64,000 nt of DNA from Pseudomonadota bacterium (GCA_016202695.1 JACQOE010000029.1:61332-125331); one strand, 5' to 3'. Counted from the first letter of the stretch, positions 4,529-54,878 are shown. The notes: a model not told the origin generated them from the letters alone. Numbers and translations: made by a program.

Positions 4529-4780
4529 CCACTCGGCCTTCGCCCCACGCCCCGAGCCGTTCCGCGTCCTCCATCGGCACCATAGCCGAGCGCCGGCGGA
4601 GGCGCGAGCGGGAGGGGCGAAACTTTCCCTGGAATGGGACCCAATACCGGCTTGGCATGCCCCCGGAACCCACGATATCTTGTGGGTACAATGCGGTCCG
4701 TTCGCAGCGGCTTGGGCGGCAGACGGCCAAACGGGCAATGATGGGGGCTTCGGCCCACTCGCGGACAAGGAGCTTCGCCG

Positions 4781-5011
4781 ATGACCGAGAGACGACAAGC
4801 CAGGGCGACGCCGAGCGCCCTCGACGCCCTCAGCAGGCACTTCAGCCGCCTCGCCGAAACCTCGGCCGGCGGCCCGGCGGCGAAGGTATGGAAAGAGGCG
4901 GCCGCGGTCGACTACCGGAGCGCCAACCCCTTCCGCTACGACATGGAGTGGAAGGACGTGAGCGTGCTGGTCAACGCCCTCAAAGGCAACACCGACAAGC
5001 CGAAGGGCTGA
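4781..5011 (+). CDS. Small hypothetical protein (76 aa)
   Basis: Strong AAGGAG RBS 8 nt upstream of ATG; non-biased composition (W, K, D, Y); no recognised family. Confidence 0.45.
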   Translation: MTERRQARATPSALDALSRHFSRLAETSAGGPAAKVWKEAAAVDYRSANPFRYDMEWKDVSVLVNALKGNTDKPKG

Positions 5012-5110
5012 GGCCGGGAGACGCCGTCCGCGCCCGCGGAGGCGCTGCCGCTTTATGATCTGTCGTCTTCGTTCTTGATTTGTTTCCATTGTTCCGGTTA
5101 GGCTCGGCCG

Positions 5111-6238
5111 ATGGATCGGTCCGACCCCCTCGCGCCCCGACCCGCCTGCCCGCAGAAGGCCCGCGGCGCGATCGGCAATCCTACGGGGCGCTTCGAGCGT
5201 GAGGTACGGGTCCCGGTTTCCGACGGATGGGACGAGGGCGGGGCTCCGTCCGAGGGGCCGCGCCTCGCTACGACCCTCACCCCCGATGCGAGCCGCACCA
5301 TCATCGCCCGGAACGACTCGCCGGACGTGGGCTTCGAGCAGTCGATCAATCCCTACCGCGGCTGCGAGCACGGCTGCGTCTATTGCTACGCCCGCCCGAC
5401 CCACGGCTATCTCGGGCTTTCGGCCGGACTCGACTTCGAGACCAGGCTCTTCTTCAAGCCCGATGCGGCCCGCCTATTGGAGGCCGAGCTTCGCCGGCCC
5501 GGCTATCGGGTGCGCACCATCGCGCTCGGCACCAACACCGATCCCTTTCAACCCGTCGAGCGGCGACTCCGCATCACCCGCCAGGTGCTGGAGGTGCTTG
5601 CCGCCTTCAACCATCCGGTCGGCATCGTCACCAAGTCGGCACTGGTGACGCGCGATATTGACATCCTCGCGCCGATGGCGGCCAAGGGGCTGGCGCGGGT
5701 GATGCTCTCGGTCACCACCCTGGAGGCCGCGCTCGCGCATAAGCTCGAGCCGCGCGCGGCGCTCCCCGCCAAGCGACTCGAGGCCGTTCGCGTCCTCGCC
5801 GAGGCCGGAGTGCCGGCGGGGGTGATGGTCGCGCCGGTGATCCCGGCCCTCACCGACTGGGAGATCGAGCGCATCCTCGAGGCCGCGCGCGGGGCGGGGG
5901 CGGACCGGGCCGGCTACACCCTGCTCCGGCTCCCCCACGAGGTGAAGGACCTCTTCACCGACTGGCTTTCCGCCCACGCGCCGCTCAAGGCGCGCCACGT
6001 CCTCAGCCTGGTCCGCCAGTGCCGGAACGGCCTCCTCTACGACTCCGGCTTCGGCACCCGCATGACCGGCGAGGGACCGTATGCGCGCCTCATCGCGACG
6101 CGCTTCGAGGCCGCCTGCCGCAGGCTCGGCCTCAACCGCCCGCCGGGCGCCGGAGGCGCGCACCGCGAGCAGGACACCTCGCTCTTCCGCCCGCCGCCGC
6201 AGGCCGGCGACCAGCTCGCGCTCTTCGCGCACGACTGA
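5111..6238 (+). CDS. Radical SAM protein, PA0069 / SplB-like (DNA-repair-photolyase-like) family
   Basis: CEHGCVYC CxxxCxxC cluster after NPYRGC; length and overall pattern of PA0069-family radical SAM. Confidence 0.8.
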   Translation: MDRSDPLAPRPACPQKARGAIGNPTGRFEREVRVPVSDGWDEGGAPSEGPRLATTLTPDASRTIIARNDSPDVGFEQSINPYRGCEHGCVYCYARPTHGYLGLSAGLDFETRLFFKPDAARLLEAELRRPGYRVRTIALGTNTDPFQPVERRLRITRQVLEVLAAFNHPVGIVTKSALVTRDIDILAPMAAKGLARVMLSVTTLEAALAHKLEPRAALPAKRLEAVRVLAEAGVPAGVMVAPVIPALTDWEIERILEAARGAGADRAGYTLLRLPHEVKDLFTDWLSAHAPLKARHVLSLVRQCRNGLLYDSGFGTRMTGEGPYARLIATRFEAACRRLGLNRPPGAGGAHREQDTSLFRPPPQAGDQLALFAHD

Positions 6239-6271
6239 CGGCGCCGCTGCGCCGGTCGGGCGCCGGCGAGG

Positions 6272-6883
6272 TCAGTTATGGGCTCCCATCGTCCCATGCC
6301 GGTGGGACGAGTCGCCGCCGGCTGGCGCGCCGGCGTAGCCGCGAAGGCGGACGTACTCAGCCACCTGCTCAGGCGAGAGGAGGGCCCGCGCGAGGAGGTG
6401 GTAGCGGAGATGGGTGTGGCGCAGCTCGCCCTCGAGCCGCGCGATCGCGAAGACGAGCGTACCGAGCGCCCCGTCCTCGGCCGCGCCGCCGGCGAAAAGT
6501 CGGTCGAGGGTGGCCTCCTTCTCGACGATCGCCCGGCCGAGCGCCCGCGCCTCCCCCTGCATTCGCGCCTTGAGCGCACGCATCTCGCCGGCTTGCGCCT
6601 CGGAAAGCCCGAGCGCCTCAGCCAGGTCGAGAACGTGCGTCGGGCCCGGGTAGCGGTTGAGCTCGGCCGCAAGCGCGAGCGAAAGGCCCCGCCCGGCGAG
6701 CAGGTCCTCGACCTGCTCGGCCGAGAGAGCCTTGATCTCGCGCCCCTCCCAGCCGGCATAGGGCGAGCGCCCCGCCTCCGCGAAACCGGGGCTTCGCTCC
6801 GGTGCCGGCGGATCGGCCGCGCCCGCCGCCGCCGCGAGCGCGCCCGCCCCGGCCAGCACAGCCGCGAAAAGTAATTCCTTCAT
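6272..6883 (-). CDS. Periplasmic Spy/CpxP-like (LTXXQ-type) protein with His-rich C-terminus
   Basis: Signal peptide [22 protein letters not shown]; LSAEQ / LSEAQ repeats; C-terminal [12 protein letters not shown]; GGGAGAG RBS before ATG at 6883. Confidence 0.6.
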
Positions 6884-7044
6884 TCCGCTCTCCCTCATCC
6901 CGCCCGGCCCGGCAATTCCGCCGGGCAAAGCCGCCCATCCCTATAGACCCGCGCCCGGCCGCCGCAAAGCCCCGCCGGCATGTTATAGTCGGACCAAGGG
7001 GACGGGCCGCGTGCAAGGCCCGGTCCATCGCGGCCCGGGGTGCG

Positions 7045-7680
7045 ATGCCTGATCTGTCGCTGGAGGGCTCCGTCGGCGCCGAGGTCGGCCGGCGGGTCGC
7101 GGGGGTGGACGAGGCCGGGCGCGGGCCGCTCGCCGGGCCGGTGGTCGCCGCCGCCGTCGTTCTCGGGCGCGAGGCGCTGGCCGGCGACCTCGTCTCCCGG
7201 CTCGACGACAGCAAGCGGCTCGCCCGGGCGGTGCGCGAGGCGCTCTACGCCGAGATCGCCTCCTCGGCCGACTGCGCGGTCGGTATCGCCTCGGTCGCCG
7301 AGGTCGATTCGTTGAACGTGCTCAGGGCCTCGTTCCTCGCCATGGCCCGGGCCGTCGCCGCGCTCGGCAGGCGCCCCGACGTCGCCCTCGTCGACGGCAA
7401 CCGTGCCCCGCGCCTTCCCTGCCGGGTGCGGACCGTGGTGAGGGGTGACTCGATCTCGGCCTCGATCGCCGCCGCCTCGATCGTCGCCAAGGTCACCCGC
7501 GATCGGATCATGGCCGCGCTCGCCTGCGAGTTTCCCGGCTACGGCTGGGAGCGGAACGCCGGCTACGCCACCGCCGAGCACCGCTCGGCGATCGCCCGCC
7601 TCGGGGTGACCCCGCACCATCGCAGAAGCTTCGCGCCCATCCTTGAGGCGCTTGCTCAATTGAACCTGCCACTCGATTGA
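7045..7680 (+). CDS. rnhB: Ribonuclease HII
   Basis: [15 protein letters not shown]...DDSKRL...LVDGN motifs; start at Met82 of track ORF. Confidence 0.9.
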
Positions 7681-21004: not shown

Positions 21005-21225
21005 CGGGCGCCCCCCTCTGTCTCGGGACCTGAAAGATTCACCCGCGCGGATGCGGGTTTACATCTTCGGTGAGGCGCCTGCCTGCGCCTGCTTTCCAGA
21101 GTGTCATCGCCCTGCGGTCCTTTTGCCTGAGAGTTTCGGGGGCCCGTTGCTCCTTCGGCGCCGGCCGCGGCCGAGTCCGTCCGCAAATGGGACGCCCTCG
21201 CCCGCCGGTCTCTCCCGCAGGGGTC
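21005..21225 (-). promoter_or_regulatory. Tandem glycine riboswitch (two aptamers) in gcvT leader
   Basis: Reverse complement reads GGGAGAGACCGG...GGCGCCGAAGGAGCAACGGG...GAAACTCTCAGGCAAAAGGACCGCAG (aptamer 1) then CTCTGGAAAGCAGG...CACCGAAGATG...CTTTCAGGTCCCGAGACAGAGG (aptamer 2), matching the glycine-riboswitch consensus; boundaries approximate. Confidence 0.8.
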
Positions 21226-21340
21226 GTATGACTCCTCGCCGCCGGACCCCTCGCCCCGAGGGCGCGCGATCCGCCAGCACCACCCAGTTTAGTCCCTCTC
21301 CGGCCAACGTCAATGCCACCCCGGCGCGGACCCGGCAAGG

Positions 21341-33841: not shown

Positions 33842-34261
33842 TCAGGCGCCGCCCGGCCCTCGCCTCTCCTCGTCCCGACCGCCCCCCGAGTCGGCGGCCA
33901 GCATCTCCGCGACGCGGTGCCGGTACTGGAGCGCGACCAGCACCCCCTTGAACAGCCTGAGGAGCACGACCGCGAGTGCGAGGATGGCCGGCGGCCAGAC
34001 GATGGCGTGCAGCCACAAGGGCGGCTCGAAGGCGATCTCGATGCCGAACGCCAGCCCGACCGCGGCGACGCCGAGGAAGAAGATCACGAACACCGCCGGC
34101 CCGTCGCCAGCGTCGTGGTTGCGCAAGTCCAGCCCGCAGGCGCGGCAACGCTCGGCGACCGAGAGCAGGCCCGAGAAGAGCGGCCCGGCGGCGCAGCGCG
34201 GGCACCGACCCCTAAGGCCGGTGGCGATGGGGGACTGCGGCGGGTAGTACGCGTTGCCCAC
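33842..34261 (-). CDS. DUF983 zinc-ribbon membrane protein (cox-cluster associated)
   Basis: CPRC...CRAC Zn-ribbon N-terminus + 2 TM; conserved position between ctaE and surf1. Confidence 0.7.
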   Translation of the reverse strand: MGNAYYPPQSPIATGLRGRCPRCAAGPLFSGLLSVAERCRACGLDLRNHDAGDGPAVFVIFFLGVAAVGLAFGIEIAFEPPLWLHAIVWPPAILALAVVLLRLFKGVLVALQYRHRVAEMLAADSGGGRDEERRGPGGA

Positions 34262-34276
34262 GTCCTCGGCCGATCC

Positions 34277-35101
34277 CTAAACGCGCGGCGCCCCGCTCCC
34301 GCCCCACCAGTAGACACAAACAAAGAGGAACAGCCACACCACATCGACGAAATGCCAGTACCAAGCCGCGGCCTCGAAGCCGAAATGGTGGTCCGGCTTG
34401 AAGTGGCCTGCCCAGGCCCGGTAAAGACAAACGCTCAGGAACACGGTGCCGATCATCACGTGGAAGCCGTGAAACCCGGTCGCCATGAAGAAGGTCGAGG
34501 AGTAGATGCCGTCCTTGAACGAGAACGGCGCATGGCTGTACTCATACGCCTGCACAAGGAGGAAGGTGAGGCCGAGCGCGATGGTAAGCCCGAGACCCTG
34601 AAGCATCTGCGCGCGCTTGTCCTCGATCAGCGCGTGATGCGCCCAGGTGACCGTGCAGCCCGAGCTGAGGAGGATGAGCGTGTTGAGGAACGGGAGCTCC
34701 CACGGATTGAAGACCGTCACCCTCTGGGGCGGCCACTGCCCGCCGGTCGAGGCCGCCGGGAAGAGGCTCGAGTCGAAGAAGGCCCAGAAGAAGGCGGCGA
34801 AGAACATCACCTCGGAGGCGATGAACAGCGCCATCCCGTACCTGAGCCCGATCTGCACCACCGGCGTGTGATGCCCCTCAAAGGTGGCCTCGCGCACGAC
34901 GTCGCGGAACCAAGCGAACATCACCGCCAGCACCGCGGCCACGCCCAGAAGGAACAGCCAGATCACGTCGTAATGCATGTAGACCAGGAGCCCGACGAAC
35001 ATGGTGAACGCGGCGAGTGCGCCCAGGATCGGCCAGGGACTAGGGTCGACCAGATGATAGGGATGCTTATGCGAGGCGTGGGGGGCGTGCGCATGGGCCA
35101 T
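34277..35101 (-). CDS. ctaE: Cytochrome c oxidase subunit III
   Basis: HPYHLVDPSPWP... canonical subunit III N-terminus, 7 TM. Confidence 0.95.
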   Translation of the reverse strand: MAHAHAPHASHKHPYHLVDPSPWPILGALAAFTMFVGLLVYMHYDVIWLFLLGVAAVLAVMFAWFRDVVREATFEGHHTPVVQIGLRYGMALFIASEVMFFAAFFWAFFDSSLFPAASTGGQWPPQRVTVFNPWELPFLNTLILLSSGCTVTWAHHALIEDKRAQMLQGLGLTIALGLTFLLVQAYEYSHAPFSFKDGIYSSTFFMATGFHGFHVMIGTVFLSVCLYRAWAGHFKPDHHFGFEAAAWYWHFVDVVWLFLFVCVYWWGGSGAPRV

Positions 35102-35137
35102 GGATTTCGGTTCCTCTGATCAGCCTGCGGCCGGCCA

Positions 35138-35728
35138 TCACTCTCCGACGTGGGCGACCTCGTCGGACCGTCCGCCCAGAACGGGGACGTCGTCGAGCGA
35201 GCGGAAGAAGGTGTAGGAGAGGGTGATGGTGGACACGTCTCCGGTATCGGGGTCGGCGGCGATCGCCGGATCGACGAAGAAGCTCACCGGCATCTCGACC
35301 CGCTCGCCCGGCTTGAGCGTCTGCTCGGTGAAACAGAAGCACTGGATCTTGTTGAAGTACCGGCCGGCCTTGAGGGGGGTAACGTTGAAAGTCGAGATCC
35401 CGGTCACCGCTGCGTCCGCGTGGTTGACCGCCTCGTAGTAGACGAGCGCGGTCTCGCCCACGCGCAGGCGAACCTCCTTCTGCAGCGGCCGGAACGACCA
35501 CGAAAGCCTGGGATTGACATCGGCATTGAAGCGCACCGCGACGATCTTCTCTCCCGCCTGGGCCGGCACCGAGGCCGCGACCCGGGTGGCGCCGCCGAAG
35601 CCGGTCGCCCGGCAGAAAAGGTCGTAGAGCGGCACCGAGGCGAAGGCCAGACCGACCATGCCACCGACCACGGCCAGCAGACCCGCGAGCACGACCCGGT
35701 TGCGCCGGCGCAGCCGATCCGGGCTCAT
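35138..35728 (-). CDS. ctaG: Cytochrome c oxidase assembly protein CtaG/Cox11
   Basis: TM + ...YDLFCRATGFGG... Cox11 copper-chaperone motif. Confidence 0.9.
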   Translation of the reverse strand: MSPDRLRRRNRVVLAGLLAVVGGMVGLAFASVPLYDLFCRATGFGGATRVAASVPAQAGEKIVAVRFNADVNPRLSWSFRPLQKEVRLRVGETALVYYEAVNHADAAVTGISTFNVTPLKAGRYFNKIQCFCFTEQTLKPGERVEMPVSFFVDPAIAADPDTGDVSTITLSYTFFRSLDDVPVLGGRSDEVAHVGE

Positions 35729-35877
35729 CCGCCCCCCGTGATCTTGACGATGGTGACTAGGTAGAAGAGCACCGCGAGCCCGCCGAGCACCGCGAGGAGC
35801 GCGAGGTTGCGGCCGCGCACCCGACGCGCGCGCTCGTCCGTCGCGCCCGGCTCCCTCTCGATTCGCTCGCCGGCCAC
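35725..35877 (-). CDS. Unannotated 50-aa single-TM protein in ctaB-ctaG gap (GTG start)
   Basis: Manual translation VAGERIEREPGATDERARRVRGRNLALLAVLGGLAVLFYLVTIVKITGGG*; stop TGA overlaps ctaG ATG (ATGA); below the 60-aa track cutoff. Confidence 0.4.
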   Translation of the reverse strand: MAGERIEREPGATDERARRVRGRNLALLAVLGGLAVLFYLVTIVKITGGG

Positions 35878-35890
35878 GGCGCCCGCCCCC

Positions 35891-36820
35891 CTAGGCCCAG
35901 CCCAGGAGCGCCGCGGCGCGGTCCGCGATCAGCGCGCAGAAGATGAGGAAGAGATAGACGATCGAGAAGCCGAACATGCGCTTCGCACTCGCCACGCCCC
36001 GATCGCGGAAGACCGCGAGCGCGCGATAGAGGAACGTGGCGGAGAGCAAGACCGCGGAAACCCCATAGACCGGACCCGAAAGCCCGACCGCGAGCGGCGC
36101 CAACGAAATCGCCGCCACCACCGCACTGTAGAGCAGGATCTGGCGGCGCGTCTCGCGCTCGCCCGCGACGACCGGCAGCATCGGCACCCCGGCACGGGCG
36201 TAGTCGGCGCTGCGGTAGAGGGCGAGCGACCAGAAGTGGGGCGGAGTCCAGAAGAAAATGAGGGCGAACAGGATGAGGGCCTCGATCCCCACGTCGCCGG
36301 TCGCCGCCGCCCAGCCGATCACCGGCGGGAAGGCCCCGGCGGCGCCCCCGATGACGATGTTCTGCGGGGTGCGCCGCTTGAGCCAGACCGTGTAGACGAA
36401 CACGTAGAATGCGATCGAGAGCGCAAGCAGCGCCGCCGCCGCCAGCCCTACCACCAATCCCATCAGCAGCACCGAGCCGGCGGCGAGGGCGACCCCGAAG
36501 GACAGCGCCTCCTCGGGCCGCATGCGCCCCGCCGGGATGGGGCGAGCGCAGGTTCGCGTCATCACCGCGTCGATGTCGCGGTCGTACCACATGTTGATCG
36601 CCCCGGCCGCGCCGGCGCCGAGCGCGATGGCGAGCACGGCGACCGCCCCGATCAGCGGATTCGCCCCGCCGGGCGCGAGCAGGAGCCCGGCAAGGCCGGT
36701 GAACACGACCAGCGACATCACCCGCGGCTTGAGGATCGCGACGTAGTCGCGCGCCGAGGCGAGATCGACGACCGCTTGCGCCGCCGCCCGCGAACTGAGG
36801 TCACCTGCGCTCTCGGACAC
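35891..36820 (-). CDS. ctaB: Protoheme IX farnesyltransferase (heme O synthase)
   Basis: UbiA-family polyprenyltransferase motifs, 9 TM. Confidence 0.95.
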   Translation of the reverse strand: MSESAGDLSSRAAAQAVVDLASARDYVAILKPRVMSLVVFTGLAGLLLAPGGANPLIGAVAVLAIALGAGAAGAINMWYDRDIDAVMTRTCARPIPAGRMRPEEALSFGVALAAGSVLLMGLVVGLAAAALLALSIAFYVFVYTVWLKRRTPQNIVIGGAAGAFPPVIGWAAATGDVGIEALILFALIFFWTPPHFWSLALYRSADYARAGVPMLPVVAGERETRRQILLYSAVVAAISLAPLAVGLSGPVYGVSAVLLSATFLYRALAVFRDRGVASAKRMFGFSIVYLFLIFCALIADRAAALLGWA

Positions 36821-36872
36821 TCTTGTCGCTCCCTCTGCGCTTCTCCGCCGTTCCGCCGCGATCGGCGCACCC

Positions 36873-38537
<1,665 letters not shown>

Positions 38538-45725: not shown

Positions 45726-46546
45726 TACCCCTCGCCGGTCAGTCGGCGGAGGTAGGCATCGGCGTCGAGTGTAGCCTCCTCCGAGCGCCGGTTCAGCAGA
45801 TTCTGGATGCGCGGATTGGGACTCGCGCGCACCTCCTCGACGCTGCCCACCATCAGGATCTCGCCCCGGTCGAGCACGATCAGGCGATCGGCGATCTTCA
45901 AGGCGCTCTCGAGCTCGTGGGTGACCACGACGATGGTGATGCCGAGGGCGTCGCGGAGCTTGAGGATCAGGTCGTCGAGCTCGGCCGCCACTATTGGGTC
46001 GAGGCCCGCCGAGGGCTCGTCGCAGAAGAGGAGCTTGGGGTCCATGATGATCGCCCGAGCGAAAGCCGCGCGCTTGGTCATGCCGCCCGAGAGCTCGGAG
46101 GGCATCAGGCCCTCGAAGCCGGCGAGCCCGACCACCTCGAGCTTCATGCGGGCCATGATCCGCATGGTGCGCTCGTCGAGGTCGGTGTGCTCGCGCAGGG
46201 CCAGCATGATGTTCTCGCCGACGGTCATCGAGCTGAAGAGCGCACCGCCCTGGAAGGCCACCCCCATGTGTTTGCGCAGTTCCGCGAGTTCCGGTCCCTT
46301 GAGGCGGCCAAGATCGCGCCCGAGCACCTTGACCGTGCCCGCGTCCGGCGTCTCGAGGGCGATGAGCTGGCGCAGGAGCGTGCTCTTGCCCGAGCCGCTG
46401 CCGCCCATGATGACCATGATCTCGCCGTCGTAGATGTCGAAGCTCACCCCTTTCAGGATGGTGCGCTCGCCGTAGCGCACCACCACGTTCTCGACCTCGA
46501 TCACCCTCGGCCGGCCCTCGGCCACGGCGAGCGGAAGGGCACCCAT
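45725..46546 (-). CDS. ABC transporter ATP-binding protein (MlaF-like)
   Basis: Start at internal Met (MGALPLAVAEG...), Walker A GGSGSGKST, signature LSGGM, Walker B LLFCDEP. Confidence 0.9.
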   Translation of the reverse strand: MGALPLAVAEGRPRVIEVENVVVRYGERTILKGVSFDIYDGEIMVIMGGSGSGKSTLLRQLIALETPDAGTVKVLGRDLGRLKGPELAELRKHMGVAFQGGALFSSMTVGENIMLALREHTDLDERTMRIMARMKLEVVGLAGFEGLMPSELSGGMTKRAAFARAIIMDPKLLFCDEPSAGLDPIVAAELDDLILKLRDALGITIVVVTHELESALKIADRLIVLDRGEILMVGSVEEVRASPNPRIQNLLNRRSEEATLDADAYLRRLTGEG

Positions 46547-47346
46547 CAGCGGCTCACGACGAAGGCGAAGATCATGTCGGTGATGACGATCGCGCTGATC
46601 CCGTGTACGACCGAGCGGGTGGTGGCGCGGCCCACGCCTTCGGCGCCGCCGCGCACCGAGGCCCCGTTGACCGCACCGACCAGGGTGATGAGGACGGCGA
46701 AGATCAGGCTCTTGCCGAGCCCGTGGAAGAGATCGTCGGTGGTGATCGAGTCGATGCAGGCATCGGTGTACGCCGCGAGCGACATACCCAGCTCGATCGC
46801 GACGTAGAGCCCGCCGCCAAGAATGGCGACGAGGTCGGCGTAGAAGGTGAGCACCGGCAGCATCACCACCATGGCGAGGAGCGCCGGCGCGACCAGGAAG
46901 CGCACTGGGTTGACCGCCATCGTGGTGAGAGCGTCGATTTCCTGGTTGATGGTCATGGTCCCGAGCCGGGCGGCGATCGCCGACCCCGAGCGCCCCGTCA
47001 CCAGGATGCCGGTGATGAGGGGCGCGAACTCGCGGGTGACCGAGAGCGCAATGCCCAGAGTCACCCGGTCCTCGGCCCCGAAAATCCTGAGGGTGTAGAT
47101 GCCCTGGATCGCGAGCATGACGCCGATGGTGAGCGAGAGCACGGTGACGATGGGAAGCGCGAGGATGCCGATCTCCATCATCTGCACGAAGACGGAGCCG
47201 ACGCGCACCGGCTGGCGCCGGCGCCTGCCCATCAGCGTCCAATAAAGACTCTCGGCGAAGAGCGCGCCGGCGAAGCCGAGGTCGGCAAGCCCGCGCGCGG
47301 TCGCCCGCCCGACCTGCTCGGCGACATCGGCAAGCGGCCGCAGCAC
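46546..47346 (-). CDS. ABC transporter permease (MlaE-like)
   Basis: MlaE/Ttg2B family pattern (...QMMEIGILALPIV...EIDAL...). Confidence 0.9.
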   Translation of the reverse strand: MLRPLADVAEQVGRATARGLADLGFAGALFAESLYWTLMGRRRRQPVRVGSVFVQMMEIGILALPIVTVLSLTIGVMLAIQGIYTLRIFGAEDRVTLGIALSVTREFAPLITGILVTGRSGSAIAARLGTMTINQEIDALTTMAVNPVRFLVAPALLAMVVMLPVLTFYADLVAILGGGLYVAIELGMSLAAYTDACIDSITTDDLFHGLGKSLIFAVLITLVGAVNGASVRGGAEGVGRATTRSVVHGISAIVITDMIFAFVVSR

Positions 47347-47350
47347 CCGC

Positions 47351-47683
47351 TCAGCCGCCGCTGGCGAGCGCCTCGGCGACGCTCGCGTGAATCGCGAAGA
47401 CCTTGTCGAGGCGCGCCAGGCTCAGGACCCGCATGGCGGCGGGACTCACCGCCGCGAGCGCCAAGCGCCGGCCCCTGAGCCGCGCCGCCTGAAGCGCCTC
47501 GACCAGGCTGGCGATGCCGGAGGAGTCGATGTAGGTGATCCGAGCCATGTCGACGAGCACGTCGCGGCCGCGTCCGACCGCCTTCAGCAGCACCTCTCGC
47601 GCCTCGGGCGAGCTGTCGAGGTCGACGTCGCCCTCGAGCGTAACCACGAGCGTGGCGCCGTCCTCGCGGAGCTGGTGTTTCAT
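47351..47683 (-). CDS. STAS-domain protein (anti-sigma-factor antagonist fold; MlaB position) with phosphorylatable DSSG motif
   Basis: 110 aa; ...ARITYIDSSGIASLVEA... = conserved SpoIIAA/RsbV phospho-Ser loop; 4 nt upstream of MlaE start, overlaps kinase stop. Confidence 0.85.
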   Translation of the reverse strand: MKHQLREDGATLVVTLEGDVDLDSSPEAREVLLKAVGRGRDVLVDMARITYIDSSGIASLVEALQAARLRGRRLALAAVSPAAMRVLSLARLDKVFAIHASVAEALASGG

Positions 47684-48183
47684 GGCCTCTCCCCCTCGGC
47701 CTTTCCCGCCGCCGCCCCGGTCGGTGCGATCCTTTTGACCATGCGCAGCAGGTTGCCACCGCCGGCGGGGCGCGGCAGGAAGGCGACCTCGTCCATCACC
47801 TCTCGGATCAGATGCGTGCCAAGCCCTCCCGGCCTCAGCTCGTCGAGGTCGCGGGGCCTGACCCGGCGCTCGTCCACCGGCGGGGCGAAGTCGCGGAGCT
47901 CCACCGCCACCCGATCGCCCTCCCGTCGCATCGTCAGCACAATCTCGCCGTCGGGCCGCCCCGAATAGGCGTGGCGGATGACGTTCTGACAGGCCTCGTC
48001 GACCGCGAGCACGATGTCATGGACCGCGTCCTCGCTGCAACCGGTCGAGCGCACCGCCGCCGCCACCGCGGCACGGACCATCTTCAGCCGGTCGGGAAGG
48101 GAGCGGAAGCGAAGCTCGAACAGCGTCTCGGCCGCGGCGCCCTCCGCTAGCGAAGGCTCGGCCCGGGTGGGGTTGGCCGCCAC
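47680..48183 (-). CDS. RsbW/SpoIIAB-like serine protein kinase (HATPase_c anti-sigma regulatory factor fold)
   Basis: GTG start (codon 62 of track ORF) after GAGGGG RBS, 12 nt after phosphatase stop; VHDIVLAVDEACQNVIRHAY N-box; G-boxes LRDFAPP...GGLGTHLI. Confidence 0.75.
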   Translation of the reverse strand: MAANPTRAEPSLAEGAAAETLFELRFRSLPDRLKMVRAAVAAAVRSTGCSEDAVHDIVLAVDEACQNVIRHAYSGRPDGEIVLTMRREGDRVAVELRDFAPPVDERRVRPRDLDELRPGGLGTHLIREVMDEVAFLPRPAGGGNLLRMVKRIAPTGAAAGKAEGERP

Positions 48184-48194
48184 GCCCGCGCCCC

Positions 48195-49481
48195 TCAGGC
48201 TCCGTCCACGGCGACCAGGGTGAGGTCGTCGTGGATCTCGCCGCCCGCGGGGCAGAGACGGTCGACGACGATTCTGAGGAGTTCCGGAGAGGTGAAGCGC
48301 CCCGCAAGCTCGGCGATCATCGCCGTCAGCCCCTCTGCCCCCAGGCGCCCGCCGCCCGGCAGCCAAGCCTCGGTGACGCCGTCGCTGAAGACGTAGAGGG
48401 TGCCGCCTCCCAGCTCCAGCTCGCTCACCGGGGGGCCGGTCTCGGGAATCAGGTTGGCGGCGATGCCGAGCGGCGGCACGCTCGCCGGAAGGGCGGTGAA
48501 GCGGCCCCCGCGGGCGCGGAAGAGTGGCGGCTCATGGCCGGCATTGGCCAGGCGCACCCGGCGGCGCGAGGGATCGAGCACGCCGCAGACCATGGTGACG
48601 AACATCCCTCGCGTCACTGTCTCGCAGATCTCGGCGTTGACTCGGGCGATCAGTCGGCCGGGATCGTGGACCTCCTTGCCGAGGCAGCGAAAGACGCTCG
48701 CGGTCTTGGCCATGAGGAGCGCGGCGTTCATGCCCTTGCCGGAGACGTCGCCGAGGGCGAAGCAGACGCTGCCGTCGGCGAGCGGGAAGAAGTCGTAGAA
48801 GTCGCCGGAGACGCACCGCGCCGGCTGGTTGGCGCCGCAAACGGGAAAGGGAACCGGACGGGGAGCGGGAAGAAGGTTCCTCTGGATCTCGGCGGCCAGC
48901 TCCAGCTCGCGGCGCATGCGCTGCTGCTCGACCAGCTCGGCCGACATCTGCGCGTTCATCACCGCCAGCGCCGCGGCCGAGGCGAGCGCCTGAACGAGGT
49001 GGCGGTCGCGCTCGTCGAAAAGCCCGCCGCCGCGCTTGTTGATCAGCTCGATCGCGCCCAGGCAGAGGTCGCCGTGGCCCAAGGGCGCGCACAGGATCGA
49101 GCGGGTGGTGAAGCCGGTGAGCTTGTCGACCGCCTTGCCGAACTGCGGATCCTTCGACACGTCGCGGACCATCTGCGTCTCGAGCTCGCGGATCGAGCGT
49201 CCGACGATGCCGCCGTCGGCGGGGAGCCTGAGCCCGGTGATGTCGACCGGGCCGAAGCAGGCCCGGCAGACCACCGCCGTGCCGTCCTCATCGAGAAGGA
49301 AGAGCGAGGAGGCCTCGGCGCTCACCTGATCGGCGATTCGCTTCAGACCGCGCCGGAGGGTCGCCTCGACGTCGAGGGTCCGGGCGAAGTCGTGGATGAG
49401 GTCGGCGAGGAGGTGCAGACATTCGAACACCTCCTCGGCCGCCGCGGAATGCGCGCTTGCCGCCCGGTTGCTCGCCGACAT
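48195..49481 (-). CDS. GAF-domain PP2C/SpoIIE-type serine phosphatase (RsbU/RsbP-like)
   Basis: N-terminal GAF (…LFLLDEDGTAVVCRACFGP…ILCAPL…); C-terminal PP2C (…SGDFYDFF…GDVSGKG…DDLTLVAV). Confidence 0.85.
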   Translation of the reverse strand: MSASNRAASAHSAAAEEVFECLHLLADLIHDFARTLDVEATLRRGLKRIADQVSAEASSLFLLDEDGTAVVCRACFGPVDITGLRLPADGGIVGRSIRELETQMVRDVSKDPQFGKAVDKLTGFTTRSILCAPLGHGDLCLGAIELINKRGGGLFDERDRHLVQALASAAALAVMNAQMSAELVEQQRMRRELELAAEIQRNLLPAPRPVPFPVCGANQPARCVSGDFYDFFPLADGSVCFALGDVSGKGMNAALLMAKTASVFRCLGKEVHDPGRLIARVNAEICETVTRGMFVTMVCGVLDPSRRRVRLANAGHEPPLFRARGGRFTALPASVPPLGIAANLIPETGPPVSELELGGGTLYVFSDGVTEAWLPGGGRLGAEGLTAMIAELAGRFTSPELLRIVVDRLCPAGGEIHDDLTLVAVDGA

Positions 49482-49566: not shown

Positions 49567-49929
49567 CTACTCGCCTTCGATCTCGCGCTCCTCGGCGACG
49601 TGATCGACCATGTCGGTGAGCACGGCGCGGATGTGCTCGTCGGCGACCAGGTAGAACACCTGGCGCCCCTGGCGCTGCGCCTGCAGCAGCCGCGCCGCGC
49701 GCAGGAGCCGGAGGTGGTGGCTGACCAGCGACGGCGAGAGCTTGAGCTTGCTCGCCATCTCGCCCACCGAGACCTGCTGATGGAGGCAGGTGAGGATGAT
49801 GCCCAGCCGGGTGGGATCGCTCATCAGCCGGAAGACCTCGGCCAGTTCGACGACCTCGTCCTCGCCCAGCCGCGGCCCGGTCACCGTCGGCGAGGCGGGG
49901 TTCTTCAACACGGGAACGCCCTTCGGCAC
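49567..49929 (-). CDS. ArsR/SmtB-family metalloregulatory transcriptional repressor
   Basis: wHTH ...AEVFRLMSDPTRLGIILTCLHQQVSVGEMASKLKLSPSLVSHHLRLLRAARLL... Confidence 0.85.
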   Translation of the reverse strand: MPKGVPVLKNPASPTVTGPRLGEDEVVELAEVFRLMSDPTRLGIILTCLHQQVSVGEMASKLKLSPSLVSHHLRLLRAARLLQAQRQGRQVFYLVADEHIRAVLTDMVDHVAEEREIEGE

Positions 49930-50097
49930 CGCGATAGTCCTTAAAGTCCAATCCTTTGGCCGCGCATCCTAGCCCTCGCCCGGCGCCGCCGCAACCCGGG
50001 ACGCGCATGATTCGGGCCTTGAAATCGAGCCCGATTTGGATAATAAAAAGGATCGAAAAACGGGAAAATCAAAAGTAACCGGAAATACTTCTATTCC

Positions 50098-50160
50098 TGT
50101 TCATCTGTAAATTTGAACATCAATGCAAACATGTATGCTGTTCATCTGTACATATGAACA
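50098..50160. promoter_or_regulatory. Two 22-bp palindromic operators TGTTCA-N10-TGAACA (50098-50119 and 50139-50160) in ArsR/MCO divergent region
   Basis: TGTTCATCTGTAAATTTGAACA and TGTTCATCTGTACATATGAACA, centres 41 bp apart, inside an AT-rich 250-bp intergenic region. Confidence 0.5.
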
Positions 50161-50207
50161 CCCGTTTGAAAGTCGCGCGAGACGAGAGAGAGCGGGAGGG
50201 CGACGGA

Positions 50208-51377
50208 ATGGCTGAAACGGGAACCGGGGCGAGACGGGCGAGATGGGCGCCGCGGCCGGCGGCCACGCGCCCGGCGCTCGAGGTGTCGCGCCGGGGCATG
50301 CTCCTGGGCGGTTTAATCGGCTCCGCCGGGGCGCTCCTTCCGCGGCTTGCCCGGGCCGACGCCGCGGCGGCGGCCACGGCGAGCCCGGGCGCCCCCTACC
50401 CGGCGGCGGGCGCGCATGCCAGCGGCGGAGCGATGGACCACGGTGGCATGATCACGGTCGGCAACGTCGATTCGGCGCGCAACGGCTTCGACCCGCACGA
50501 CCTCCTCGCCGACTTCACCACCGGTGCAATTTCGACCCTGGCCGGCGGCCGGCGGCTTCGCCAATTCGAGGTCGTCGCCGAGGACAAGGAGATCGAGGTC
50601 GCTCCCGGGGTATTCTTCCCGGCCTGGACCTTCAACGGCCGGGTGCCAGGTCCCACCCTCCGGGTGAGCGAGGGAGACCGGGTGCGCATCCGCTTCGTCA
50701 ACCACGGCTCGCATCCCCACTCGATCCACTTCCACGGCATCCACAGCGCGCGCATGGACGGCGTGCCCGGCGCCGGCCTAGTCGAGCCGGGGGGCGAATT
50801 CGTCTACGAGTTCGACGCCTTCCCCTTCGGCTGCCACCTCTACCACTGCCACGCGGTGCCCCTGAAGCGGCACATCCACAAGGGCCTCTACGGCGCCTTC
50901 ATCGTCGACCCCGACCCGGCCCGCCACCCCGAGCACGCCGAGGCCGCCCGCTCGCGGCTCCTCGGCGCGCCCGAGAACGCGCGCTGGCAGGAGCTGGTGA
51001 TGGTGATGAACGCCTTCGACACCAACTTCGACGAGGAGAACGAGGTCTACGCGGTCAACACCGTTGCCCACGCCTACGCGAGGAGGCCGATCCCGCTCGA
51101 CCGCCAAAGGCCGGTCCGCGTCTACCTCGTCAACGTCACCGAGTTCGACCCCATCAACTCGTTCCACCTCCACGCCAACTTCTTCGACTACTACGACCAT
51201 GGCACCACGCTGACGCCGACGCTTAGGACGGTCGACACCGTGATGCAGTGCCAGGCGCAGCGGGGGATTCTCGAGTTCTCGTTCAAGGACCACGAGCCCG
51301 GACTCTACATGTTCCACGCCCACCAGTCGGAATTCGTCGAGCTCGGCTGGATGAGCTTCTTCGAGGTGCGGCCATGA
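50208..51377 (+). CDS. Tat-secreted multicopper-oxidase-type cupredoxin protein
   Basis: Start at Met19 after GGGAGGG RBS; twin-arginine SRRGMLLGG; copper sites HSIHFHGIH, LYHCHAV, HAHQSE. Confidence 0.85.
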   Translation: MAETGTGARRARWAPRPAATRPALEVSRRGMLLGGLIGSAGALLPRLARADAAAAATASPGAPYPAAGAHASGGAMDHGGMITVGNVDSARNGFDPHDLLADFTTGAISTLAGGRRLRQFEVVAEDKEIEVAPGVFFPAWTFNGRVPGPTLRVSEGDRVRIRFVNHGSHPHSIHFHGIHSARMDGVPGAGLVEPGGEFVYEFDAFPFGCHLYHCHAVPLKRHIHKGLYGAFIVDPDPARHPEHAEAARSRLLGAPENARWQELVMVMNAFDTNFDEENEVYAVNTVAHAYARRPIPLDRQRPVRVYLVNVTEFDPINSFHLHANFFDYYDHGTTLTPTLRTVDTVMQCQAQRGILEFSFKDHEPGLYMFHAHQSEFVELGWMSFFEVRP

Positions 51378-52528
51378 TCCGGGCGGCGGGCCTGGCGGCA
51401 CTGCCGCTCGTCGCCCTCGTTGCCGTGATCGGCCTCATGGCGACGCTCAACCCGCTCGCCACTGTCAGCGTCACTGCGCCGCCGATCGAGACGCTCACGG
51501 TCGAGCGCACTGTGCTCGACGAGGGCGGAATCTCTCTCCTCGTGCGCGCCAGCGGAAGCGAGCCGCTGGCGATCGCCCAGGTGCAGGTGGACGGCGCCTT
51601 CTGGCGCTTCGCCCAGGAGCCGCCGGGGCCTCTCGCCCGGCTCGCGACCGCCTGGATTCGTATTCCCTATCCCTGGGTCGGGGGCGAGCGCCACAAGCTG
51701 GTGATGATCAGCCGCACCGGCGCCACATTCGAGCACGCGATCGCGGTCGCCGTCGCCAGCCCGAAGTGGTCGCTGGCGCAGATGCGGGCCTACACCTGGA
51801 TCGGGTTCGTGGTCGGGTTCGTACCGGTCTCGCTCGGCATGCTTTTCTATCCGCTCCTGCAGCGATTGAGCCGGCGCGGCTTCGAGTTCACGCTCGCCCT
51901 CACCGTCGGGCTGCTCCTCTTCCTGTTGATCGACACCCTCGCCGAGGGTCTCGAGCTCGCCGGCGGGGCGGCGCCCGAGTTCCAGGGGGCAGCGCTCGTC
52001 TGGCTCGTCGCCGGGCTCACCTTCCTCACCCTGATGGCAATCGGCCGGCGCGGCGGGCACGCGCCCGAGGGGATCGCGCTCGCGACCTACATCGCCCTCG
52101 GGGTCGGGCTGCACAACCTCGGCGAGGGGCTCGCCGTCGGGGCCGCCTTCGCCGCCGGCGAGGCGGCGCTGGGCGCCTTCCTGGTGGTCGGATTCGTGCT
52201 CCACAACCTCACCGAGGGCGTCGGCATCGTCGCGCCGCTGACTGAGGACCGCCCGCACCTTTACGTCTTCCCCGCGCTCGCCGCGCTTGCCGGCCTGCCG
52301 GCGATCGCCGGCGCCTGGGCGGGGAGCGTGGCCTACGCGCCGCACCTCGCGGCGCTCTTCCTCGGAGTCGGCGCCGGGGCGATCCTTCAGGTCGTCGTCG
52401 AGGTTGGCTCCTACCTCGCGCGCCGCGCCGCGCGCACCGGCGCCTCGTGGCTGTCGGCGAGCACGGTGACCGGCACCTTCGCCGGGGTGGCGGTGATGTA
52501 CGCGACCGCCTTCCTGGTCAAGTTCTAG
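51374..52528 (+). CDS. ZIP-family metal cation transporter with ~150-aa N-terminal periplasmic extension
   Basis: ATGA overlap with MCO stop; two LHNLxEG ZIP signature motifs ([26 protein letters not shown]). Confidence 0.75.
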
Positions 52529-52547
52529 GGGCGGGTGGAGAAAACGC

Positions 52548-53954
52548 ATGAGTGAGCGAGCGGCCCTCGGGATCAAGCTGCCGCCGGCCGCGGCGGCGGG
52601 GACTGCGGCCCCCCTCGGCATCTGGGCGCCGCTCGCCGACTCCGCGGACGCGCGGCCGGCCGTCCCCAGCCTCGCCGAGGTCTACCGGAGCATCCCCGTC
52701 GCCCGTGACGCGCCCTTCTGGCGCCGGGCGATCGCCTTCGCCGGGCCCGGTTACCTAGTTGCCGTCGGCTACATGGACCCCGGCAACTGGGCGACCGACA
52801 TCGCCGGCGGCTCGGCCTTCGGCTATACGCTGCTTTCGGCGGTGCTGCTGGCCAGCCTGCTCGCCATCCTCTTCCAGGCGCTCGCCGCCAAGCTCGGCAT
52901 CGCCACCGGGCTCGATCTCGCCCAGGCCTGCCGGCGCCATTACAGCCGGCCAGTGGCGCATGCCCTCTGGCTCTTGGCCGAGACCGCGATCTGCGCCACC
53001 GACCTCGCCGAGGTGATCGGCACCGCGGTCGCGCTCAACCTCCTGTTCGGCATCCCGATCCTGGCCGGGGTCGTGATCACCGCGCTCGACGTGCTCCTGA
53101 TCCTCGCCCTTCAGGCCCGCGGCTTTCGCCACCTCGAGGCCTTCGTGATGACGCTCCTGGTGATCATCGCCGGCTGCTTCGCCTTCCAGGTGGCGCTCTC
53201 GCGCCCCGATCTCGCCGCCCTGTTCGGCGGCTTCCTGCCCTCGGCCGAGGTGGTGCGCAACCCGGCGATGCTTTACATCGCCATCGGCATCCTCGGCGCC
53301 ACCGTGATGCCCCACAACCTCTACCTCCACTCCGCGATCGTGCAGACGCGGGGCTTCGAGGAGAGCGAGCGCGGCCGGCGCGACGCGATCCGCCTCGCCA
53401 CCGTCGACAGCACCATCGCGCTCAGCCTCGCCCTGGTCATCAACGCCAGCATCCTGATCGTCGCCGCGGCCGCGTTCCATGCCGCCGGCCAGACCGAGGT
53501 GACCGAGATCCACCAGGCCTACGGGATGCTGGCGCCGCTCCTCGGCGTGCCGGCGGCCGCCACCGCCTTTGCCGTGGCCCTGCTCGCCGCCGGACAGAAC
53601 TCGACGGTGACCGGCACGCTCGCCGGCCAGGTGGTGATGGAGGGGTTCCTCGACATCCGCCTGCCGCCCTGGCTCAGACGCCTCGTGACCCGCGCGATTG
53701 CGATCGTCCCGGCGGTGGCGGTGACGGCGCTCTACGGCGAGAGCGGCACGGCCAAGCTCCTGATCCTGAGCCAGGTGGTGCTCAGCCTCCAGCTCCCCTT
53801 CGCGGTGGTGCCGCTGGTGCTGTTCACGAGCGACCGCGCCAAGATGGGCCGATTCGTGAACCGGCGCTGGCTCGCCCTGCTCGCCTTCGCCGCGGCGAGC
53901 GTGATAATTGCGCTCAACGTGAAGCTGGTGGCCGATTTCGCCGGCGCCCTCTGA
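52548..53954 (+). CDS. mntH: NRAMP-family divalent metal (Mn2+/Fe2+) transporter
   Basis: [17 protein letters not shown] signature, 11-12 TM. Confidence 0.9.
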
Positions 53955-53986
53955 GCGACGGCCGGGCCGCGGCCGGTGCGGGCACC

Positions 53987-54697
53987 TCAGCCCAGCCCCT
54001 TGGCCGGCTCCTTGGAAACCGGGCGCCGGGAGGGGGCCTCGCCGTAACCGGCATGGGCGGCGGCGCGCACCCCGTTCGGCTTCTCGTTCCGGCAGTGAAT
54101 GACGGTGAAGAGCCCGAACGGGTTGACGGTCCGCATCCCGCGCACATGGATCTCGTCGGGGTCGATGAAGGAATCGAGGTTGAAGTCGGGATGCCAGCCG
54201 AGGCGGCCGGAGAAGGGCGCCATCGCCTTCTCGATCGCCGCCCGGACCCCCCTCCTGGCGGCGAAGTGATTGCAGATCAGAATGTCGCCCCCGGGCACGC
54301 ACACCCGCCGCATCTCGCGCAGCAGCCGCTGCGGATTGGGAACGACCGAGGCGGTGTAGAGGGCGACGACGACGTCGAAGGCGGCGTCGCGAAAGGTCAG
54401 GTTCTCGGCGTCCATCTCAAGAAGAGCCTCGACGTGGCCGAGCTTGAGCCGCTCGACCCGCCGGCGCGCGATCGCAAGCATCTCGGCCGAGATGTCGATC
54501 CCGACCACCCGGCAGTCGGGCCGGTACTCGGGTAGCGACAGCCCCGTGCCCACCCCTACTTCAAGGATGCGCCGGCCAGCGATGCGGTTGGCCGCGGCCA
54601 GGGTGGCACGTCGACCGGGCTTCACGAGATTGCCAAAGAAGGTATCGTAGTGGCGCGCGTAACGGCCGTAGGCTGACTTGATCGCGTCTAGGTCCAT
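53987..54697 (-). CDS. Class I SAM-dependent methyltransferase (PmtA-like)
   Basis: ILEVGVGTG SAM-binding motif I; overall similarity to phospholipid N-methyltransferases. Confidence 0.75.
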   Translation of the reverse strand: MDLDAIKSAYGRYARHYDTFFGNLVKPGRRATLAAANRIAGRRILEVGVGTGLSLPEYRPDCRVVGIDISAEMLAIARRRVERLKLGHVEALLEMDAENLTFRDAAFDVVVALYTASVVPNPQRLLREMRRVCVPGGDILICNHFAARRGVRAAIEKAMAPFSGRLGWHPDFNLDSFIDPDEIHVRGMRTVNPFGLFTVIHCRNEKPNGVRAAAHAGYGEAPSRRPVSKEPAKGLG

Positions 54698-54878
54698 CTA
54701 TCATGTGAACCGCGTCGAGGCGCCCGGCCTGCCCCCCGCCCCCGGCAGGCCATATCTTGGCATCCCCCCTCAGTCCCCCTTGCTGTTGACGCAGAAACGA
54801 TTGAATCCCTAGGGTTTATATAAGATGCCCCTCGGTCGAAAAGCAACCATTATCCATGTCCCGGGGCCCCGCACCGCC

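Follow-up and report, generated by a model that had tools for sequence, protein, structure and literature searches.

A 64 kb stretch of DNA from a Pseudomonadota bacterium (GCA_016202695.1, JACQOE010000029.1:61332-125331; hereafter the window) carries three co-directional genes encoding a multicopper oxidase (MCO), a ZIP-fold transporter and the importer MntH, of which the first two form the oxidase–permease pair that is the subject of this report. The anatomy of the locus was determined from an open reading frame (ORF) listing, sequence reads and hidden Markov model (HMM) scans, and the ORF listing and scans recovered every element that a first-pass annotation of the same DNA had described (Table 1). 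A divergent ArsR/SmtB-family gene lies upstream of the MCO gene across an AT-rich intergenic region of 278 nt, and a convergent methyltransferase gene (53987-54697) ends the three-gene unit. The MCO start codon is preceded by a GGGAGGG ribosome-binding site 8-14 nt upstream. The stop codon of the MCO gene overlaps the start codon of the ZIP gene in the sequence ATGA, as noted previously, an arrangement suggestive of translational coupling. The gene for MntH begins 19 nt past the ZIP stop codon (20 nt in the earlier estimate) and has its own ribosome-binding site, GGTGGAG; its identification as an NRAMP importer holds, with scores of 622.7 bits for NF001923 (cut-off 430) and 438 bits for Pfam Nramp (cut-off 29.8), both above threshold. 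A sigma-70 scan of positions 49800-54800 detected no consensus promoter, and terminator-like matches were at background level.

Table 1. Features of the three-gene locus and of its upstream flank, in coordinates of the window.
Feature	Position	Strand	Basis
ArsR/SmtB-family metalloregulator, 120 aa, divergent	49567-49929	-	NF033788, Pfam HTH_5
Candidate ArsR operator 1, 22-bp palindrome TGTTCATCTGTAAATTTGAACA	50098-50119	.	Repeat search
Candidate ArsR operator 2, TGTTCATCTGTACATATGAACA (arms TGTTCATCTGT and ACATATGAACA, 91% complementary)	50139-50160	.	Repeat search
Two-domain (type C) MCO, 389 aa, Tat signal	50208-51377	+	Pfam domains, PDB matches, ligand conservation
Twin-arginine motif SRRGMLL of the Tat signal peptide	50286-50306	+	Sequence read
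ATGA stop/start overlap, MCO–ZIP	51374-51377	+	Sequence read
ZIP-fold transporter, 384 aa, with extra N-terminal transmembrane anchor and predicted periplasmic domain	51374-52528	+	
Predicted periplasmic Ig-like β-sandwich domain, ZIP residues 41-123, clade-specific	51494-51742	+	Domain model
ZIP transport-site motifs HNLGEG (TM4, 52112-52129) and HNLTEG (TM5, 52202-52219)	52112-52219	+	
MntH, NRAMP-family Mn2+/H+ importer, 468 aa	52548-53954	+	NF001923, Pfam Nramp
GAF-SpoIIE/PP2C phosphatase	48195-49481	-	
RsbW-like HATPase_c_2 kinase	47680-48096	-	
STAS protein, then MlaE	47351-47683	-	

The oxidase and the transporter

The MCO consists of two cupredoxin domains, detected by Pfam as Cu-oxidase_3 (84.5 bits, cut-off 21) and Cu-oxidase_2 (65.4 bits, cut-off 20.4), preceded by a twin-arginine translocation (Tat) signal peptide. 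The segment SRRGMLLGGLIGSAGALLPRLARA at residues 27-50 contains the twin arginines, a hydrophobic stretch and an AxA site, in agreement with the earlier description of a Tat-secreted enzyme; cleavage probably occurs after ARA (about 50352-50357), and the twin-arginine motif is found in 71 of 75 MCO orthologues. The predicted type 1 (T1) copper site is made up of H171, C214, H222 and the axial residue L227, and eight histidines of the trinuclear cluster lie in four HxH motifs, HFH (174/176), HCH (213/215), HLH (320/322) and HAH (370/372). The four motifs, together with C214, H171 and H222, are each at least 98% conserved in an alignment of the 75 orthologues. Since the T1 cysteine is located in the first (N-terminal) domain, the protein belongs to the 'type C' two-domain MCOs. 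The axial position was inferred from the spacing of ligands in NirK and MCOs and from the alternation of Met and Leu in that alignment column. An axial Met is indeed missing here, where the residue is Leu227 (50886-50888), but this feature, to which the first-pass annotation had attached significance, is not a family trait: the orthologues split into 39 with Met and 36 with Leu. The argument drawn from the axial residue is weak for this reason, and axial Leu was discarded as a functional signature of the family.

Two better-known enzyme classes were considered for the MCO and rejected. The NirK model TIGR02376 gives 97.2 bits against a cut-off of 296.3, with the match limited to domain 1, and, unlike NirK, the protein has the HCH motif and all four HxH motifs. 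The CueO model NF008205 gives 36.1 bits against a cut-off of 525, and there are two cupredoxin domains rather than three. Judged by its ligand set and profile scores, the protein is a genuine multicopper oxidase, neither NirK nor CueO; an affiliation with either had been named in advance as damaging to the idea of a metal-linked operon. It has the cupredoxin superfamily in common with these two and with the Mn(II)-oxidizing enzymes MnxG, MofA, MoxA and McoA, which are larger, multi-domain MCOs. The nearest solved structures, 7RAB/7RAC (E = 1.4e-172, about 80% identity) and 3GDC (E = 6.8e-98), belong to the same MCO clade; 3GDC, presumably from Arthrobacter sp. FB24, is without a 17-residue insert at residues 241-257. 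A full-text literature search found no paper or function for 7RAB/7RAC or 3GDC.

The ZIP-like protein scores 22.5 bits against Pfam PF02535 over residues 236-377, under the cut-off of 35.1, although many of its orthologues do have a precomputed PF02535 match; its best NCBIfam match is ZupT, with 28 bits against a cut-off of 252. The top Foldseek match of its AlphaFold model (mean predicted local distance difference test, pLDDT, of 82.6) is BbZIP, with an E value of 2.8e-7 and a TM score of 0.64-0.67. The motifs HNLGEG and HNLTEG, invariant in 23 orthologues, align with the metal sites in transmembrane helices 4 and 5 (TM4 and TM5) of BbZIP, which we take to be H177/N178/E181 and Q207/D208/E211, and the HNLxEG-type transporter core proposed earlier is thereby borne out. 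By its modelled eight-helix fold and paired TM4/TM5 motifs the protein is a ZIP transporter, one that falls short of the Pfam gathering score. It has these features in common with BbZIP and ZupT and differs from them in its extra N-terminal TM helix, its predicted periplasmic β-sandwich and its pairing with an MCO; its TM5 motif is of the form HNxxEG, compared with QDxxEG in BbZIP. More than 5589 full-length homologues were found.

The N-terminal extension of the transporter had been described as a periplasmic domain of about 150 residues. The extension is present and measures 133 residues, with a TM helix at residues 2-25 and a β-sandwich at residues 41-123, and the predicted topology would place the β-sandwich in the periplasm, the same compartment as the Tat-exported MCO. 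Modelled alone, the domain has a pLDDT of 90.6. Its structural neighbours were weak, generic immunoglobulin (Ig)-like matches alone (FlaF/FlaG, DsbD-N and CopC; E values of at least 2.6e-3), and a Pfam scan found no family for it; a known metal-binding fold was discarded, as models of the whole protein and of the domain alone both returned generic Ig-like matches. Its conserved polar residues are E39, Q69, D/N73, Y99, W101 and E105, and H107 and H121 are each retained by 28 of 41 divergent representatives. The first 150 residues of the protein have matches in 611 representative clusters, and in the best 150 of these the domain is N-terminal in proteins of ZIP length, with the exception of a few frameshifted read-throughs. 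Apparent MCO–ZIP fusions from metagenomes (P0212, P0162, P0221 and others) were considered as evidence for a complex and rejected as frameshifted read-throughs of overlapping genes, that is, artefacts of assembly or gene calling.

Conservation of the pair and its association with MntR

A scan of one genome per species yielded 80 loci encoding the ZIP-like protein (individual loci carry L numbers below). In 79 of them the ZIP gene is directly preceded by an MCO gene on the same strand, and the exception is truncated by a contig end. The pair occurs in at least eight phyla, with carriers among Cyanobacteria, Deinococcota, Alpha- and Gammaproteobacteria, Chloroflexota, Bacillota, Balneolaceae and Fraserbacteria and more distant members in Tectomicrobia and Gemmatimonadota. 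Plasmid copies are found in Rhodococcus, Rubrobacter, Cytobacillus and haloarchaea (Halorubrum), and a regulator–MCO–ZIP cassette occupies positions 4146-7059 of the Rhodococcus sp. WAY2 plasmid locus (L085). A total of 146 plasmid records contain the MCO gene, and half of these plasmids are predicted to be conjugative; each part of the pair has thousands of homologues in the databases searched. A 4-nt NTGA overlap of the ZIP start with the MCO stop is available in 64 of 84 loci, which, together with the adjacency in 79/80, puts the coupling of the two genes far beyond chance. An all-against-all clustering of ORFs from the loci gave no general neighbour beyond the MCO and ZIP genes and their antisense ORFs. 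Genes for MerR, PCuAC, Sco1, DsbA-like proteins and P1B-ATPases recur in subsets of loci only; the gene for MntH adjoins the pair in two to four of about 84 loci, and that for ArsR in just a few. What is conserved is the MCO–ZIP pair, usually with MntR, and not an MCO with two importers and ArsR. Of the acquisition or detoxification island envisaged by the first-pass annotation, the compact metal-homeostasis operon is real, and its particular combination of genes is rare.

Neither the MCO nor the ZIP-like protein reaches any curated NCBIfam cut-off, and the NCBI names for both are generic. The automatic labels of orthologues vary between laccase-like protein, manganese oxidase (in JGI records), nitrite reductase and zinc transporter ZupT, and are likely to be mis-annotations. 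The LMCO3 protein of R. opacus R7, which is 57% identical to 3GDC and encoded upstream of 'zinc-transporter genes', has been treated as a candidate polyethylene-oxidizing laccase (PMC8556283). An ordinary laccase that happens to lie beside an unrelated zinc transporter, the adjacency having no functional meaning, is an explanation to which we give next to no credence: it is strongly disfavoured by the conservation data, as adjacency in 79/80 loci across phyla, the stop/start overlap and shared control by MntR (see below) leave no room for coincidence. Conversely, the polyethylene-laccase role of LMCO3 looks doubtful because the metal-uptake context is conserved.

Several loci contain further genes beside the pair. 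In Hyphomicrobiales and related loci (L018, L019, L022, L029, L032, L040, L041 and L045) the pair sits inside a heavy-metal island with MerR-type regulators, a His-rich P1B-ATPase and PCuAC, Sco1 and DsbA-like genes. In Chroococcidiopsis (L084, 7155-7589) the gene for a small Rieske protein, the RR-containing N-terminus of which is Tat-like, begins at the ZIP stop codon; it was not found at any other locus examined. In Halorubrum (L086, 7135-7557) a plastocyanin/azurin-like gene follows the ZIP gene. In some lineages, these Rieske and plastocyanin/azurin-like proteins may serve the MCO as electron-transfer partners in the periplasm.

A gene of the MntR/DtxR family is adjacent to the pair in about 35 loci (tblastn). 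It is divergent and directly upstream of the MCO gene in annotated plasmid copies, divergent also in Alphaproteobacteria, and co-directional, often overlapping, in Chloroflexota, Fraserbacteria, Rhodococcus, Halorubrum and the 7RAB-like locus. Of these regulators, five were tested, and each was better described by MntR models than by the iron-DtxR model; the MntR equivalog cut-off is clearly exceeded by two and only just attained, at 350 bits, by a third. As signs of MntR control we accepted a AACATAGC-N4-GCTATGTT-like site upstream and/or an adjacent mntR gene. The palindrome ATAGC-N4-GCTAT upstream of the MCO gene agrees with the published MntR consensus AACATAGCnnnnGCTATGTT (PMC1698941). 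When up to one mismatch is allowed, 28 of 76 loci have such a box, usually a pair of them, in the 700 bp preceding the MCO match, and all zero-mismatch boxes in about 1 Mb of fetched loci precede the MCO. In many cases the MCO-proximal box has the sequence GCTATAAT and would overlap a TATAAT-like -10 hexamer, which favours repression by Mn-MntR. In the study of Rodionov et al., the mntR gene of Mesorhizobium sp. BNC1 was considered 'enigmatic', its one MntR site being upstream of mntR itself (PMC1698941); by analogy with many Mesorhizobium/Phyllobacterium loci, a divergent MCO–ZIP operon sharing the mntR intergenic region could explain this gene.

Importer genes accompany the pair at some of the loci. 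The gene order in Fraserbacteria (L038) is MntR–MCO–ZIP–MntH, and a metagenome contig (L083, 5006-10538) contains one co-directional cluster of MntR, MCO, ZIP, a ZnuA-type binding protein, an ABC ATPase and an ABC-3 permease. The MntR of this cluster matches the Thermus-type model at 350 bits, and its MCO is 98% identical to 7RAB, so that the solved 7RAB structure belongs to the MCO–ZIP module. Nramp genes are located near the pair in L046 and in Chroococcidiopsis L084, the latter also with GDT1 and CDF genes. The orthologous loci thus resemble those of the importers MntH and MntABC/SitABCD in regulator family, operator consensus and co-operonic importers; we know of no MntR-controlled importer that includes a copper oxidase. 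Of the three candidate metals that the first-pass annotation had left open, Mn is favoured by comparative genomics on the basis of the MntR genes, MntR boxes and importer partners.

The same evidence bears on a possible bacterial counterpart of Fet3p/Ftr1p that would oxidize and import Fe(II) under a DtxR-family iron sensor. The DtxR family does include iron sensors, MntH and ZIP proteins can carry Fe2+, and Fet3p/Ftr1p, EfeUOB and FtrABCD provide precedents. We nevertheless regard an iron system as highly improbable here, as five of five regulators are better described as MntR than as iron-DtxR, the boxes fit the MntR consensus and not the Fur, Irr or RirA motifs, and the ZIP protein is not an Ftr1-type Fe(III) permease.

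Regulation in the window

The operon of the window departs from this pattern. The window contains no MntR gene and no Mn riboswitch, the intergenic region has no MntR box even at up to three mismatches, and the operon shows neither of the signs of MntR-regulon membership. The ArsR-type repressor reported earlier is present in the divergent position (NF033788, 78.4 bits, cut-off 55; Pfam HTH_5 match). Aligned to SmtB (1R22, E = 5.6e-17), it has the complete α5 ligand set D-x-H-x10-H-x2-E, column for column; the SmtB ligands are, as we take them, D104, H106, H117 and E120. The two candidate operators in the intergenic region are palindromes 41 nt apart, the second of which ends 48 nt before the MCO start codon. 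The 64 kb contain no further instance of their pattern, and shuffled sequences are expected to give 0. The window copy appears to be a regulatory variant in which MntR has been replaced by a sensor with an SmtB-like α5 site. In Salinisphaeraceae (L021, 4640-4700), where an ArsR-like gene is also located upstream of the MCO, the promoter region contains an AT-rich inverted repeat, ATTACAT...ATGTAAT, which corresponds neither to the operators of the window nor to the MntR box.

On binding their metal, ArsR/SmtB proteins leave the DNA, and they usually induce genes at metal excess; the operon is therefore expected to be induced by metal excess and not by Mn starvation. The SmtB-like ArsR would bind the two 22-bp palindromes and let go when its α5 site takes up metal, and the operon would respond to an excess of a metal of the Zn, Co, Ni or Cd type. 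A possible rationale would be to restore the Mn supply when a competing metal blocks Mn import. If this is correct, the exchange of MntR for an SmtB-type sensor constitutes a natural experiment in which a metal-uptake operon was rewired to a different metal signal.

Induction at metal excess is also what one would expect of manganese detoxification, in which the MCO would convert excess periplasmic Mn(II) into insoluble Mn(III/IV), the ZIP protein would export Mn or be unrelated, and MntR acting as an activator, or de-repression by ArsR, would turn the genes on. Besides the normal behaviour of ArsR/SmtB sensors, this explanation can draw on the CDF and GDT1 efflux-type genes near the pair in L084 and L086, on the label 'manganese oxidase' in some JGI records and on the axial Leu of the window MCO, which could raise the T1 potential. 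It is nonetheless very unlikely in our estimation, and of detoxification and acquisition, detoxification is the less likely role for the operon. MntH is co-transcribed here and in L038, as is an ABC importer in L083, and import paired with detoxification would be futile. Moreover, the overlap of the MCO-proximal MntR box with the -10-like TATAAT fits repression, ZIP proteins as a rule import, and the JGI label is automatic.

Proposed function and flanking genes

With the pair in the MntR regulon in most lineages, it is most likely a manganese-acquisition device. We therefore favour, with modest confidence, a manganese-acquisition module in which oxidase and permease cooperate and which, in the window, is joined by mntH under the SmtB-like ArsR. 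The ZIP-fold protein would be an inner-membrane importer of Mn(II)-class ions into the cytoplasm and the Tat-exported MCO its obligate periplasmic partner, probably docking on the N-terminal β-sandwich of the transporter in the manner of the Fet3p/Ftr1p oxidase and permease. The addition of mntH would have turned this module into the three-gene operon of the window. The proposal has two sub-models, one, the novel case, in which the MCO would oxidize Mn(II) for selective capture and another in which it would remove competing Fe(II) or Cu(I).

The nearest functional analogy is provided by yeast Fet3p/Ftr1p, in which a copper oxidase and the permease devoted to it are expressed together to take up a redox-active metal; EfeUOB and FtrABCD are bacterial systems of this type. 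An MCO and a dedicated permease likewise occur together here, as seen in the near-invariant adjacency and the NTGA overlaps. In contrast, the oxidase is a soluble, Tat-exported two-domain protein where theirs is membrane-anchored with three domains, the permease has a ZIP fold where theirs is of the Ftr1/OFeT type with REXXE motifs, and regulation points to Mn rather than Fe. The difference in permease family excludes the pair from the Fet3p/Ftr1p systems, and the comparison is therefore one of analogy only.

In a more specific form of the first sub-model, the MCO would oxidize Mn(II) to Mn(III) at the periplasmic domain of the permease, where it would be selectively captured and handed over to the ZIP-fold channel. 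Mn is the weakest binder in the Irving-Williams series. We consider such redox-gated uptake unlikely, though of interest. Unlikely too is a free-standing selectivity guard, in which ZIP and MntH would import Mn(II) and the MCO, leaving Mn untouched, would oxidize competing periplasmic Fe(II) and/or Cu(I) to states that these promiscuous importers do not accept, so that uptake stays specific for Mn and Fenton damage is limited at times of Mn scarcity. It accounts for the MntR linkage and the importer partners equally well, ZIP and NRAMP proteins accept Fe2+ and other divalent ions, and the full copper set of the MCO appears compatible with ferroxidase or cuprous-oxidase activity. A free-standing enzyme, however, needs no near-obligate adjacency, 4-nt overlap or clade-specific permease domain, and the MCO has no evident Met-rich, CueO-like segment, in keeping with its low score against the CueO model.

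The nearest described gene arrangement is the MCO1–ZIP pair of ammonia-oxidizing archaea, for which the sources are Kerou 2016 and Reyes 2020 (PMC7785015). MCO1 has been described as a two-domain MCO with T1-T3 copper centres and an axial Leu, beside a ZIP permease and with a hypothesized role in metal uptake; according to the published description, the pair (NVIE_000600 and NVIE_000590) is found in Thaumarchaeota only and is associated with Cu limitation (PMC7785015). This description is one ground for an explanation by copper handling, in which the MCO would oxidize Cu(I) to Cu(II) and the ZIP protein would import Cu(II) or feed copper to the MCO: Cu limitation in Nitrososphaera viennensis was accompanied by a moderate rise of MCO1 and of the ZIP permease beside it, and a role in Cu uptake has been hypothesized (PMC7785015). 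The PCuAC, Sco1, P1B-ATPase and MerR-type genes near the pair in several Hyphomicrobiales loci and the plastocyanin-like gene after ZIP in Halorubrum point the same way. Copper handling is still distinctly unlikely, given that the regulators beside the pair are of MntR type, with MntR boxes, across phyla, and that its operon partners are MntH or an MntABC-like importer. No CueR/CsoR/CopY-type logic was seen in the window, and the neighbouring ATPases have His-rich N-termini that we class, on our own reading, as of the Zn/Cd type.

Several observations weigh against manganese acquisition. An oxidase is counter-intuitive for the uptake of Mn(II), which is already the soluble form, and the transport-site ligands of the ZIP protein (H, N and E, twice) resemble those for divalent ions. 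ArsR/SmtB sensors classically de-repress detoxification genes, and both the MntR gene and the MntR box are missing from the window. Efflux or resistance genes (CDF, GDT1, P1B-ATPases, MerR, PCuAC and Sco1) are located near the pair at several loci. The entries 7RAB/7RAC and 3GDC are titled just 'multicopper oxidase', with no functional name, and a literature search found no functional study of the MCO–ZIP pair. In some bacteria MntR may also act as an activator of efflux genes (PMC9240420), and the MCO–ZIP gene pair of ammonia-oxidizing archaea has been tied to copper limitation (PMC7785015).

Judged from sequence comparison, an oxidase–permease pair composed of a two-domain MCO and a ZIP protein and placed in a Mn regulon would be a new form of an established type of system. 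If manganese acquisition is its function, the pair would represent a widespread manganese-uptake route dependent on a copper enzyme, of a kind that has not been characterized, and would couple Cu to Mn homeostasis much as yeast couples Cu and Fe through Fet3p/Ftr1p. The question why bacteria make metal-oxidizing MCOs would also gain a concrete and genetically tractable test. Should uptake be redox-gated, Mn acquisition would be copper-dependent in many bacteria and haloarchaea, and bacterial Mn(II) oxidation by MCOs would have a physiological reason.

The genes flanking the operon are unrelated to it. Upstream, a partner-switching set (46546-49481, minus strand) composed of GAF-PP2C, RsbW-like and STAS genes with MlaE lies directly downstream of arsR on the same strand; downstream, the flank contains a thiamine pyrophosphate (TPP) enzyme and a CitMHS transporter. 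Elsewhere in the window, a tandem glycine riboswitch is located at 21014-21227 on the minus strand, with aptamers scoring 63.4 and 43.6 bits (gathering score 32), and the region 34001-38000 differs from the rest in its lower G+C content (0.67) and strongly positive AT skew (0.245).

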